Positions 10,732-24,280 of a stretch of 64,000 bases of DNA are shown in pieces. This stretch comes from Fistulifera solaris. Taxonomy: Eukaryota. Positions within the stretch are counted from its first letter, which is position 1. The number at the start of each line of letters is the position of its first letter. A program made the translations under genes and the position numbers. Where the stretch lies: assembly GCA_030295235.1 (NCBI GenBank), contig AP026142.1, positions 372,001 through 436,000 of the forward strand. The letters run 5' to 3'. The notes beneath the pieces are model-generated. The model ran no database searches, was not told the DNA's origin, and saw nothing but the letters and a program-made list of their open reading frames with translations.

Positions 10732-10968
10732 GGAGTTTAAAAATTATATTCGGAGTAAGAAACGAAAGAGGCTACACTCGACAAATACTCTACAATGACT
10801 CTTATGAATTGATTCTTCTTATATTCAATTGACCTTGGGAAAACAACGGAAAGACCTTACGTTTGATAACCATTTTAAATGACAAATCTAAATAGCAGTT
10901 CGGGACAGTCTTTTCAATCTTACGCGGTGCAAAACGTTGAAACGAAAACATCCACTTTGTGACGGAAT

Positions 10969-10993
10969 GGGTGGAGGTGAGAACCTCCGGTTT
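10969..10993 (-). promoter_or_regulatory. Histone 3' stem-loop (H1)
   Basis: Minus strand AAACC-GGAGGT-TCTC-ACCTCC-ACCC, about 37 nt after the H1 stop. Confidence 0.85.
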
Positions 10994-11030
10994 TTGGAAA
11001 AAAAAGATCTTGTCCTTCCAAATACTTTAT

Positions 11031-11541
11031 TTACTTCTTTTCAGCGGCAGGAGCGGCCTTTTTCTTGGGAGCCGCCGGCTTGGCCTTAGTGGCAGCCGCC
11101 TTTTTCGGAGCCGCGGGCTTCTTCACTTTGGGGGCGGTGGCCTTCTTGGCGGCAGGCTGTTTAGCCTTGGTGGCCGTCTTTTTCGGGGCGGCCGCCTTCT
11201 TGGCGGTAGTAGTAGCCTTCTTCTTGGGCTTGGTAGGCGCCTTCTTGGTCGTCGTCTTTTCGCAGTCGTCTCCTTCTTCTTGGGTGCCTCCGCCTTGGCA
11301 GCCTTCTTGGCGGTCGCCGTCGCCTTCTTTTGAAATCGGCCGAGAGCTTGTAGGAATTCTTGTTCTGAACGAATTCACCCGAGGCCACACCGTTCTTCAA
11401 GGCTTGCAAGAAGGTTGCGTTTTGCCACTTCTTATCCTTGGGCATTTTGTCCTGCATGGCCTTCTTGATGGCAATCATACTCGAGCCATTGCGGTCTCCG
11501 AGGCCGGTAATGGCCGAAACAATTCCTGCTTTGTACGACAT
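11031..11541 (-). CDS. H1: Histone H1 (linker histone), frameshifted near 11330 and 11265; 5'UTR intron ~11555-11659
   Basis: Globular domain MSYKAGIVSAITGLGDRNGSSMIAIKK...GEFVQNKNSYKLS and a K/A/P-rich tail. Confidence 0.92.
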
Positions 11542-12272
11542 GATGTTGTTACTTCTGAAAGGCACTGCGGTCAGTTTCAATGCTCCATACAACTACAAGA
11601 GACGTCGCAGAGACTTCAACAGTAATCACTTGCCGCACCAAGACAAGGGATGCACTTACATGGTTGTTTTTGAATCAATCAACTGCTGTTACTATTGATG
11701 CAATGATGGCAAACTTTTCGTCGGTTGCCTTGCAAAAACGCGTCGGCCACCTCTCCCTCCGCCTGCGCCCAATTTTAAATCCTGCGCCAGGATACCTGCA
11801 CGTAGATCACTACGGAGTTGTACATACGTGACATTCTACATGAGTTTCAGTACAAGAATACGAAAATTTGACCTTTGTCCGAACGCGTCCGTTGGGCGCG
11901 CCAGTAGGGAGCTCAGTGACGAAATGAAGCGAGACGGCTTGCAGTCTGCGTTTCCGGCCTTTTGTCTGATGATGATTCAACTTCGAAGAACGAACATGGC
12001 TGTTGGATCGTGACGCCCTTGCAGAGTTGATGTGCGTCGCTAGCTTGTACGATGTGAAATTGCAGGGTGCAACCTAGGTCTAAGGGGTGAAAGAGTGCTT
12101 TTCATTAAAAAGTCGACAACTGAAAAGAGGCTTAGAAAAAAGATCTATTATTTCCAAGTTAATTAAAATATCAAACGCAATCGTTACCAGCTGTTTCCAA
12201 CATGAATTCCAAAACAATGCATATCTAAAGAGCAACGGTCTCGGAATCCAAAAAGTACGGCTTTGTGTGTTT

Positions 12273-12297
12273 GGGTGGAGGTAAAAACCTCCGGTTT
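12273..12297 (-). promoter_or_regulatory. Histone 3' stem-loop (H2B)
   Basis: AAACC-GGAGGT-TTTT-ACCTCC-ACCC downstream of the H2B stop. Confidence 0.85.
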
Positions 12298-12328
12298 GAA
12301 AATCTACAAAGTAGATCATGCCATGCAT

Positions 12329-12685
12329 TTAAGCACTGCTGGAGAACTTGGTCACAGCCTTGGTTCCCTCCGAGACGGCGTGCTTGGCCAATTCACCAGG
12401 AAGCATGAGGCGGACGGCAGTCTGGATCTCACGACTGCTGAGAGTGGCCTTCTTGCTGTAAGTAGAGAGCTTTCCGGCCTCAGTAGCAATGCGCTCGAAG
12501 ATATCGTTGATGAAGGAGTTCATGATGGACATACCCTTCTTGGAGATACCGGTATCGGGGTGGACCTGCTTGAGCACCTTGTAGATGTAAGAAGAGTACG
12601 TCTCGGTACGCTTCTTGCTTTTGGTCTTGGCACCAGCGGCCTTCTTGGGTGCCTTAGCAGATTGCTTGGAGGGAGTCTTAGCCAT
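12329..12685 (-). CDS. H2B: Histone H2B
   Basis: [35 protein letters not shown]...[17 protein letters not shown]. Confidence 0.99.
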
Positions 12686-13205
12686 GGTTGCGAAAGTTTG
12701 GGTTTGCGATAAACGAAAATGAAGTTCGAATAATTGTGAGAACTGAAGGAAGTCCTTGGCGTTGCGTTGCTGCGGTGGTTGTTTTGGGCGGGCCGTGCTG
12801 CAGGAGCATTTTTGGCCGGCGCACGCCAGCGGTTACACCAACTGCTAGTACTCGATGTACGCACACGTCAAAAATATACGAGGGATCTCGTACGTAGTCG
12901 TAAACGGTGTTCCTCGTACACAGTTGAAACCGCGCCACATCGTCTTGCTGTTCTACGTCTTGCAATTTTGGGCGCATCGAACTGGTAGAATTTCTACGGA
13001 GCGTACGTGTGTACCAGACTGTCGTAGAATCCATGCATTTCCTACGACACTTCACAGAACGTCGACCCCGGCTTGTTCTTCTCCGCCGCATTCACCCCAT
13101 CGTTGCCTCTGCTGCAAACGTCACAAATCACAAGCAACACTTGTTGACAACTCGTTTTTACATTATCAAAACAAAAGCAAAAACAAAACCAAAACTACTA
13201 TCACC

Positions 13206-13583
13206 ATGTCTGGAAAAGGAAAAGGAAAAGGAGGTCGCGGAGACAAGAAATCCACCAGCAGCTCCTCCAAGGCCGGCTTGCAGTTCCCCGTCGGTCGTAT
13301 CGGACGTTACTTGCGTCAAGGAAAGTACGCGACTCGTATGGGTGCCGGAGCACCCGTGTACTTGGCCGCTGTGCTCGAGTACTTGTGCGCTGAAATCTTG
13401 GAGTTGGCCGGAAACGCCGCTCGTGACAACAAGAAGACTCGTATTGTTCCCCGTCACATCACTTTGGCCGTGAAGAACGACGAGGAATTGAACAAGTTGT
13501 TGGGAGGAGTCACCATTGCCTCGGGAGGTGTGTTGCCCAACATTCACGCCGTCTTGTTGCCCAAGAAGACTGTTACCAAGTAA
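13206..13583 (+). CDS. H2A: Histone H2A (copy 1), divergent from H2B
   Basis: [15 protein letters not shown]...[12 protein letters not shown]...[15 protein letters not shown]. Confidence 0.99.
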
Positions 13584-13650
13584 GCAGCTAAGCAACTTGG
13601 TGTGTGCAGTTCCTACTGTTGGAGTCGAGCGTATGCCTCGTTTCCCTACC

Positions 13651-22260: not shown

Positions 22261-22506
22261 ATGAAAACTTTCTTTTTTCTTGTTGTGACGTTTGTGGCGA
22301 CCTCGGCCGAAATTCAAGCCACAGTGAACCGACTGGATTGTGAAGATGCCCACGACGGGTTGACGGTGCACTGCCAATTTGCGCTCGAACGCAAAGCGCA
22401 TCGCAAGAATCTCGATACATGCATTCACATTGGCAAGGAATCCTTTTGCGTCGAAGCCAAAATACAAACACTCATTCGGAAAATGCACGGCTATGACGAT
22501 CTCTAA
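22261..22506 (+). CDS. Small putative secreted/ER protein (81 aa, 4 Cys)
   Basis: Signal-peptide-like MKTFFFLVVTFVATSA, C-terminus YDDL. No recognised homolog. Confidence 0.4.
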   Translation: MKTFFFLVVTFVATSAEIQATVNRLDCEDAHDGLTVHCQFALERKAHRKNLDTCIHIGKESFCVEAKIQTLIRKMHGYDDL

Positions 22507-22800
22507 AGCCCAAGGGGAGCGACGAAACGCCTTGCAGTGTTGAAAACAAGTTGAACCTCACACGCCTCCTGGCTTGAAGAAGAAAGTACGTGTTTCTCTT
22601 ATATCCAGCATAAGTGGATAAATTATGATAAATGATAACAATAATTTGGGTTATCAAACATTTTTAATCGACCATGAAGTTGATGCGGTAGCGGACGTCC
22701 TTTATCGGAACGGTGAAAAAGGAATCCGTTACGAAGATTTATTCTTACTAGTCTACGAAAGTTTAGTTCCTCAAATTCACAGCACGGACTTTGTTGGTTT

Positions 22801-22825
22801 GGGTGGAAGTTAAAACTTCCGGTTT
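22801..22825 (-). promoter_or_regulatory. Histone 3' stem-loop (H2A copy 2)
   Basis: Identical to the copy 1 stem-loop. Confidence 0.85.
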
Positions 22826-22892
22826 GGTAGGGAAACGAGGCATACGCTCGACTCCAACAGTAGGAACTGCACACACCAAGTTGCTTAGCTTC

Positions 22893-23270
22893 TTACTTGG
22901 TAACAGTCTTCTTGGGCAACAAGACGGCGTGAATGTTGGGCAACACACCTCCCGAGGCAATGGTGACTCCTCCCAACAACTTGTTCAATTCCTCGTCGTT
23001 CTTCACGGCCAAAGTGATGTGACGGGGAACAATACGAGTCTTCTTGTTGTCACGAGCGGCGTTTCCGGCCAACTCCAAGATTTCAGCGCACAAGTACTCG
23101 AGCACAGCGGCCAAGTACACGGGAGCTCCGGCACCCATACGAGTCGCGTACTTTCCTTGACGCAAGTAACGTCCGATACGACCGACGGGGAACTGCAAGC
23201 CGGCCTTGGAGGAGCTGCTGGTGGATTTCTTGTCTCCGCGGCCTCCCTTTCCTTTTCCTTTTCCAGACAT
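22893..23270 (-). CDS. H2A: Histone H2A (copy 2), divergent from H3
   Basis: Protein identical to copy 1. Confidence 0.99.
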
Positions 23271-23682
23271 GGTGATAGTAGTTTTGGTTTTGTTTTTGCT
23301 TTTGTTTTGATAATGTAAAAACGAGTTGTCAACAAGTGTTGCTTGTGATTTGTGATGCAACCATGGACGAGAAAAGCGCGGAGGACGTGCCGAGCCCGAT
23401 TTTGCAAAAGGGCTCCAGTATATTTGCTACTGAAAGCTACATACATAGGAGCTAGTGCAAATGTTACATGGCAAGATGCGCCACTACCGTTCCTGTAGAT
23501 TTTGTACCAGTGTCTACGTAAAACTTTGACATCGAAACGTTGCCGCATTTGCGCGCCGTAATTTTTACGGGGCTGTCTCGTAGAAAAACAAATCATCGTT
23601 TTTCACGTTAAAACGGAATTCCTCTCCCCATCGCAGTCTCACAAATCGTCATCGATCAACTTTTCGTCAACCAAAAGCAAAC

Positions 23683-24093
23683 ATGGCCCGAACCAAGCAA
23701 ACCGCTCGTAAGAGTACCGGAGGAAAAGCTCCTCGTAAGCAACTTGCCACCAAGGCGGCTCGCAAGTCTGCCCCCACCACCGGAGGTGTGAAGAAACCTC
23801 ACCGTTACCGACCCGGAACTGTCGCTCTTCGTGAGATCCGTCGTTACCAGAAATCCACGGACCTTCTCATCCGCAAGTTGCCCTTCCAGCGCCTGGTCCG
23901 TGAGATTGCCCAGGACTTCAAGTCCGATCTCCGATTCCAGGGATCTGCTGTCCTGGCCCTCCAAGAAGCAGCTGAGGCTTACTTGGTCGGTCTTTTCGAG
24001 GACACCAACTTGTGCGCCATCCACGCCAAGCGTGTTACGATCATGCCCAAGGATATTCAGCTAGCTCGTCGTATCCGTGGAGAGCGATCGTAA
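23683..24093 (+). CDS. H3: Histone H3
   Basis: [29 protein letters not shown]...; intronless. Confidence 0.99.
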
Positions 24094-24129
24094 GTTCGTT
24101 ACTCCATGTTCCTCGACATGAGGTAATCC

Positions 24130-24154
24130 AAACCGGAGGTCTTTACCTCCACCC
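24130..24154 (+). promoter_or_regulatory. Histone 3' stem-loop (H3)
   Basis: AAACC-GGAGGT-CTTT-ACCTCC-ACCC. Confidence 0.85.
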
Positions 24155-24280
24155 AAACAAACAAAGACACATTTTACATCGATGATTCGAAAACTTGTTC
24201 CATGTGGTATTTGAAAATTTCTACGATTGTCGTTAAAGTTTTTGACTTAGTAAACTTGAATCAATAATATCACTCCCACC

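Follow-up and report, generated by a model that had tools for sequence, protein, structure and literature searches.

A conserved ACAAAG hexamer behind the histone hairpins of Fistulifera solaris: a candidate histone downstream element

Introduction

Is the U7-dependent ending of histone messages animal-born, or is it ancestral to eukaryotes? The question is unsettled, and it is raised by a 64,000-nucleotide stretch of Fistulifera solaris DNA (assembly GCA_030295235.1, contig AP026142.1, positions 372,001 to 436,000; called the window below), in which each of five histone genes is followed by a stem-loop, or hairpin, and then by the hexamer ACAAAG. In animals, the histone downstream element (HDE) is purine-rich and pairs with the 5' end of U7, and cleavage takes place five nucleotides past the stem, according to a preprint by Zhao, Bond and Ni Leathlobhair (October 2026; 10.64898/2026.10.14.759114; hereafter the 2026 preprint, cited, like PMC5054213 and PMC8600027 below, from excerpts). 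Earlier non-animal 'HDE' calls rest on loose purine-richness; in the window, the element is exact and selected, six bases long, and stands at a fixed distance. The question thereby becomes a concrete search for an RNA of about 60 nucleotides (nt) with CUUUGU, an Sm-type site and a hairpin.

Davila Lopez and Samuelsson reportedly found hairpins and SLBP in many protozoa in 2008. Marz et al. described U7-dependent processing as a metazoan innovation (PMC5054213). The original prediction for this DNA likewise took U7 snRNA to be generally regarded as metazoan-restricted; that the U7 machinery is confined to animals is disputed in print, homologues of LSm10 and LSm11 being reported in Physarum polycephalum and in stramenopiles. 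As excerpted, the work on P. polycephalum reports hairpins, with H1 among the genes that bear them, together with SLBP, LSm10, LSm11 and purine-rich 'HDEs', and no bona fide U7 (PMC8600027), and the 2026 preprint reports LSM10/LSM11 homologues in stramenopiles, for example Ectocarpus. The preprint scored an HDE across protists as any downstream 'AAA' or 'AAGA' and described stramenopile hairpins as further downstream and less conserved; in its main text, the words diatom, Phaeodactylum and Thalassiosira each occur 0 times. A full-text literature search returned no paper joining diatom with histone and stem-loop binding protein, nor diatom and U7 small nuclear RNA (snRNA), and for Phaeodactylum with histone mRNA and stem-loop it returned only a match on avian non-coding RNAs, off-topic by its title and abstract. 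Hairpins, SLBP and Lsm10/11-like proteins are widely reported; going by the excerpted preprint, no guide RNA is established outside animals save a predicted U7-like RNA of Rozella.

The hexamer and its position

All five histone genes of the window (H1, H2B, two copies of H2A, and H3; Table 1) carry ACAAAG past the hairpin, always on the sense strand. H1 has 12 nt between the end of the stem and the hexamer, and each of the other four genes has 10 nt, so that the original prediction of the hexamer 10-12 nt past every histone stem-loop is borne out in five of five genes. In an alignment of the five 3' regions with that of an H2B gene from another species (locus L002, see below), the invariant columns are AAACCGGA.GT..T.AC.TCCACCCA, one C of the spacer, and then ACAAAG. 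No column 3' of the hexamer's final G is conserved, as expected from the earlier claim that the sequences diverge right after the motif. The two H2A copies share a block of 567 nt with four mismatches (99.3% identity; 13121-13687 vs. 23355-22789), which opens 85 nt upstream of the ATG and closes with the hexamer's G, exactly where their identity had been said to stop. In H1, the spacer differs and is 2 nt longer, while the hexamer is intact. It is thus the hexamer, and not the spacer, that is under constraint. Five of its six bases are purines, and it is left unpaired in the consensus fold, which contains the 6-bp hairpin only.

The placement of ACAAAG behind the histone hairpins is confirmed to be far beyond chance. 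Given a frequency of 5.6e-4 per position, three allowed offsets and four independent genes (the H2A pair, a recent duplicate or conversion product, being counted once), the chance is about 8e-12. By our own arithmetic, it is still about 1e-6 after a generous correction for the post-hoc choice of word and offset. The word itself is over-represented window-wide on both strands, with 72 sites vs. 45.3 +/- 6.8 in shuffles, none of 100 of which reaches 72. The histone-hairpin sites account for only five of the 72, and the remaining excess possibly reflects codon usage.

Pairing of the hexamer within the pre-mRNA was considered and rejected: a CTTTGT lies upstream of the H2B hairpin (plus strand, 12306-12311) but not in the other genes, and the consensus fold leaves the hexamer free. 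A search for a second conserved block downstream gave three shared 6-mers vs. a shuffle mean of 0.9 and maximum of 5, which is within the shuffle range. The T- and GT-rich words TGTTTT and TTGTTT recur in four of the six downstream regions at variable distances (within 150 nt past the hexamer; 735-884 in L002), and the first 25 nt past the hexamer are 37% T, vs. 26.5% in the window. Such words may represent a weak downstream or termination element rich in U/GU.

The histone hairpins

The pattern GGARGT-N4-ACYTCC-ACCCA has five matches in the window, one per histone gene and each with 0 mismatches, as compared to 0.41 expected from shuffles. The stop-codon-to-hairpin distance is 36-72 nt in all five genes. 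The consensus fold is a stem of exactly 6 bp with one compensatory pair, G-C in four sequences and A-U in two (the H2A copies). SLBP recognizes a G-C second stem pair, U at the first and third loop positions (U1 and U3), and flanks that are A-rich on the 5' side and ACCCA on the 3' side. In the five window genes and L002, the stem base GG, the 5' flank AAACC and the 3' flank ACCCA are each present in six of six sequences, as is loop U3; loop U1 is present in five of the six, H3 having C. The G-C stem pair and loop U3 are also given as hairpin determinants in the 2026 preprint.

The hairpins of H1, H2B and H3 match the Rfam model RF00032 over 46 of its 46 positions in cmscan, with E from 4.5e-5 to 2e-4. 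None of the window hairpins reaches the gathering score of 34 bits, the top scores being 29.6, 29.5 and 27.9 bits, and the two H2A hairpins, with their GGAAGT stem, are not reported by the model even at E<=10, though their architecture is alike. Since all structural determinants are in place, the sub-threshold scores read as those of a divergent member, not of a non-member. Part of the histone genes of this lineage would escape a covariance scan whose model was trained on hairpins of animals.

Conservation in a second species

A metagenome scan with the hairpin pattern, from which the hexamer was left out, yielded 14 loci: one histone locus, L002, and 13 GC-rich chance matches. L002, a marine metagenome contig, carries the H2B gene of another species, whose protein matches the window H2B at 107 of 117 positions. 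The coding DNA of the two genes is 86.5% identical and their 3' untranslated regions (UTRs) cannot be aligned. Between them stands out an island of 40 nt with 95% identity (window 12299-12260, L002 696-735), which reaches from the hairpin's 5' flank to the C that follows ACAAAG, after which similarity ends. An island that is non-coding, is conserved above the coding sequence and has the hexamer for its last element strongly indicates that the hexamer is functional and under selection. Conservation beyond the window's own genes, which the original prediction had proposed to look for, is thus seen in an H2B gene that keeps both hairpin and ACAAAG.

The same hairpin pattern gave 16 loci in viral contigs, none of which has A-rich sequence 5' of the stem as histone hairpins do, and 14 in prokaryote-labelled genome contigs, all of them chance matches. 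Among the 44 matches (L001-L044), ACAAAG occurs within 40 nt only at L002, and at none of the 43 non-histone ones. A pattern that contains the hexamer, CCACCCAAACNNACAAAG, has at least 120 matches, and among the matches listed a single one has >=5/6 stem pairs, this being a G-run and not a histone hairpin.

Other hairpin contexts

For comparison, we used eukaryotic histone DNA in prokaryote-labelled assemblies (70 loci found through H2B and 69 through H2A) together with nine viral loci. Most of the loci in prokaryote-labelled assemblies bear the animal-type hairpin GGCYCTTTTCAGRGCC; the GGARGT-type hairpin is found in none of the H2B-found, H2A-found or viral loci. Within each contig family, the different histone genes have a short purine-rich block in common, such as GAAAGAG, ATAAAG with CAATG or TCATG behind it, or TTTTCGAAAAGAAG. 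It lies a few bases past an ACCA-type flank, and unrelated sequence follows. In 66 distinct hairpin contexts, an unfiltered set of which about a dozen are coding or otherwise not histone 3' ends, 21 of 37 AAAG occurrences begin 11-15 nt past the stem. The AAAG core of the window begins 12 nt past the stem in the core histones and 14 nt in H1, that is, within this cluster. In addition, cmscan aligns the hexamer to positions 32-37 of RF00032 ('acaaaa'), the A-rich block of the model.

Tandem eukaryotic histone clusters with canonical hairpins appeared in many metagenome-assembled genomes (MAGs) filed as bacterial or archaeal (L045-L114, L124-L192), under titles such as Saprospiraceae, Nitrospirales, Bdellovibrionales, Poribacteria and Hyphomicrobiales. 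They are eukaryotic contamination of the bins. One SAR116-labelled MAG contig (L186) has a GC-rich eukaryotic H2A with a divergent hairpin, GGTGTT-TTCG-AACACC-ACCCC, then ...GCGAAGG. This hairpin lies about 95-140 nt past the H2A stop codon at 251 and is another non-animal-looking variant of the signal.

The reader of the hexamer

An HDE is a purine-rich block some 10-20 nt 3' of the hairpin that the histone genes of a genome have in common. The resemblance of ACAAAG to an HDE, as a purine-rich block at 10-12 nt in five of five genes, is supported, because its position, its unpaired state, its purine-rich AAAG core and the selection on it all fit. To this extent, the HDE-like reading put forward in the original prediction stands: there is a real, selected element with these properties. 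We tentatively go one step further and read ACAAAG as the downstream half of a two-part 3'-end signal of histone pre-mRNA, with a U7-like RNA carrying CUUUGU as the most likely reader; we favor this reading while giving it somewhat less than an even chance. SLBP would bind the hairpin, with the invariant ACCCA close to the probable cut in the pre-mRNA. The hexamer, which follows ACCCA at 5-7 nt, would remain single-stranded and, like the animal HDE, anchor the cutting machinery, most likely through base pairing to a CUUUGU close to the small RNA's 5' end; it would presumably be removed from the mature mRNA. A U7-like RNA is the most economical reader because animal HDEs pair with the 5' end of U7. 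A CUUU core is reported to be common to animal U7 guides. That diatoms use a genuine U7-type small nuclear ribonucleoprotein (snRNP) with a CUUUGU guide for histone pre-mRNA processing is possible but rather doubtful. If true, it would be the first U7-like RNA demonstrated outside opisthokonts, and it would place the complete system of hairpin, HDE and U7 at or near the eukaryote root. The exact hexamer is a handle for finding the guide RNA, and the locus names the six bases that any guide RNA or protein must read.

Several observations weigh against an RNA reader of this kind. No more than six bases are invariant, with free variation on either side, so the duplex would be short, and edges as sharp as these would suit a protein site equally well. 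Blocks of 8-15 nt are fixed in several comparison lineages, vs. six bases here, and ACAAAG is not the motif of the comparison contigs, being present in one of the 66 contexts, at offset 2. The label 'animal-type' is itself a judgement from the hairpin sequence, and the contigs concerned are filed under bacterial MAG titles. The cross-species support comes from a single contig, L002. No U7 was matched by Rfam in the window at the gathering score or at E<=1, and a scan of the window for CTTTGT with an Sm-like site and a hairpin gave two hits, neither convincing; both were ruled out as U7 candidates, as they lie inside the open reading frames (ORFs) of pirin and of a K+/H+ exchanger. The Pfam scan, which covered 56 window ORFs, found no Sm-like or SLBP protein among them. 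Lastly, the 2026 preprint, as excerpted, scanned 761 protist genomes with the U7 model RF00066 and mentions a U7-like RNA only for the fungus Rozella.

Some of these observations would be explained as well by a sequence-specific protein that reads the hexamer in the same role of a downstream anchor removed by cleavage. A zinc-finger or RNA recognition motif (RRM) factor, or a general subunit of the cleavage machinery recruited by SLBP, are the kinds of candidate, and we know of no particular protein to put forward. Six invariant bases with two sharp edges and variable positions -1 and +1, the tolerated 2-nt shift in H1 and the lack of a U7 find within the window all suit such a reader, as does Physarum, which is reported to have no bona fide U7 despite its hairpins and purine-rich downstream elements (PMC8600027). 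Against this, in its AAAG core and in the spacing of that core from the stem the hexamer agrees with the sites of U7-paired elements behind animal-type hairpins, and U7-specific Sm-like proteins are reported in stramenopiles (10.64898/2026.10.14.759114). We consider a protein reader unlikely, though a serious contender.

It is improbable that the hexamer instead belongs to the mature mRNA or marks the cut site itself, in which case cleavage would fall on or behind the CA of ACAAAG, some 12-16 nt past the stem. CA is a favoured cleavage dinucleotide at CPSF73 sites, which counts for this explanation, and cross-species conservation and the identity of the H2A copies both end at the hexamer, as expected of a transcript end. 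However, ACCCA right after the stem is invariant in six of six sequences, and a transcript end leaves unexplained why the spacer varies and the hexamer is fixed. A role at the DNA level, for example in transcription termination or pausing, or in the binding of a factor, behind histone genes seems very improbable. The hexamer does sit at the edge of each conserved unit, with T- or GT-rich words within 150 nt downstream in most copies, but those words are not above shuffled controls, and the constant sense orientation and the distance of 10-12 nt fixed to an RNA hairpin point to an RNA-level signal. There is equally little to be said for a hexamer that lacks a function of its own and merely travels with the hairpin, whether through common descent or because the 3' ends of histone genes undergo gene conversion. 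Histone genes evolve in concert, and the two H2A copies have just 4 differences in 567 positions; yet the flanks of the island cannot be aligned among H1, H2B, H2A and H3, the H1 spacer has diverged where the hexamer has not, and between species the island beats the coding sequence (95% vs. 86.5%).

Histone genes and other features of the window

Pfam identifies five histone genes between 10.9 and 24.2 kb and no further ones; none of the 56 window ORFs is an H4 gene. Their coordinates and those of the 3' elements are collected in Table 1.

Table 1. Histone genes, hairpins and hexamers of the window (window coordinates).
Feature	Position	Strand	Remarks
H1 gene	11031..11541	-	Pfam PF00538, E 1.3e-14; three-frame translation; linker-histone globular domain and Lys/Ala-rich tail
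H1 stem-loop	10973..10988	-	GGAGGT-TCTC-ACCTCC; 42 nt past stop codon; RF00032 27.9 bits
H1 3' flank to hexamer	10955..10972	-	ACCCA, 7-nt spacer TTCCGTC, ACAAAG (10960-10955); alignment
H2B gene	12329..12685	-	Pfam PF00125
H2B stem-loop	12277..12292	-	GGAGGT-TTTT-ACCTCC; 36 nt past stop codon; RF00032 29.6 bits
H2B 3' flank to hexamer	12261..12276	-	ACCCA, spacer AACAC, ACAAAG (12266-12261); island common to L002
H2A gene, copy a	13206..13583	+	Pfam PF00125 and PF16211
H2A-a stem-loop	13656..13671	+	GGAAGT-TTTA-ACTTCC; 72 nt past stop codon; fourth pair A-U, G-C in others
H2A-a 3' flank to hexamer	13672..13687	+	ACCCA, spacer AACCA, ACAAAG (13682-13687); identity to copy b ends at 13687
H2A gene, copy b	22893..23270	-	Pfam scan
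H2A-b stem-loop	22805..22820	-	Sequence identical to that of copy a; hairpin pattern match
H2A-b 3' flank to hexamer	22789..22804	-	ACCCA, spacer AACCA, ACAAAG (22794-22789); identity to copy a ends at 22789
H3 gene	23683..24093	+	Pfam PF00125, E 2.7e-48
H3 stem-loop	24135..24150	+	GGAGGT-CTTT-ACCTCC; 41 nt past stop codon; RF00032 29.5 bits
H3 3' flank to hexamer	24151..24166	+	ACCCA, spacer AACAA, ACAAAG (24161-24166); alignment

The H2A transcription unit is duplicated and inverted, the copies lying 9 kb apart and head-to-head with H2B in one case and with H3 in the other. The H1 reading frame has two single-base shifts, each at an AAAA run (after ...SADFK and after ...ETTAK), and its translation across both gives a normal Lys/Ala-rich H1 tail. 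The shifts look like homopolymer under-calling in the assembly or, alternatively, a decaying gene; the frameshifted H1 still retains hairpin and hexamer. Other genes are split across adjacent or overlapping ORFs in different frames (14083-15496, 15719-18179, 45173-48083 and 51414-54457), namely those of an adaptor mu subunit, a K+/H+ exchanger with a TrkA-N domain, a Utp13-type WD40 protein and Snu114/EFTUD2. These splits result either from short introns or from single-base assembly errors like those suspected in H1. The 90%-identity clusters of the window H2B and H2A include proteins that their sources assign to the diatoms Coscinodiscus, Stephanopyxis, Ditylum, Rhizosolenia and Stauroneis, as well as to oomycetes. 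Pfam also finds the plastid-type families PAP_fibrillin and PPR encoded in the window. By this evidence from the sequence, a stramenopile origin has good support and a diatom is likely.

Comparison with known systems

The closest parallel is the metazoan HDE and its U7 snRNP (U7 snRNA, Lsm10, Lsm11, FLASH, CPSF73). Like the HDE, the window element stands a few nt 3' of an ACCCA flank and a hairpin of 6 bp and 4 nt, is purine-rich with an AAAG core, single-stranded and common to the histone classes, and gives way to unrelated sequence. Unlike it, the window element has six invariant bases only and belongs to a stramenopile. With respect to RF00032 (Histone3), three of the five window hairpins match over the full length, but all lie below the gathering score.

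Among non-animal systems, Physarum is similar in having hairpin-bearing histone genes, H1 included, with a purine-rich stretch downstream. Purine-richness was the sole ground for calling its element, and a poly(A) signal is present as well in most of its histone mRNAs, as excerpted from PMC8600027, whereas the window has an exact hexamer at a fixed distance and cross-species evidence of selection. The green algae Chlamydomonas and Volvox likewise combine hairpins with purine-rich downstream elements outside animals, according to the 2026 preprint. The 'AAA'/'AAGA' criterion of that protist survey, which covers green algae and stramenopiles, is of low specificity. In contrast to the surveyed stramenopile hairpins, described there as distant and less conserved, those of the window are near-canonical and follow the stop codon at 36-72 nt. 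In general, non-animal downstream elements and U7-type proteins are already in print, and the window element is an unusually sharply defined further example.

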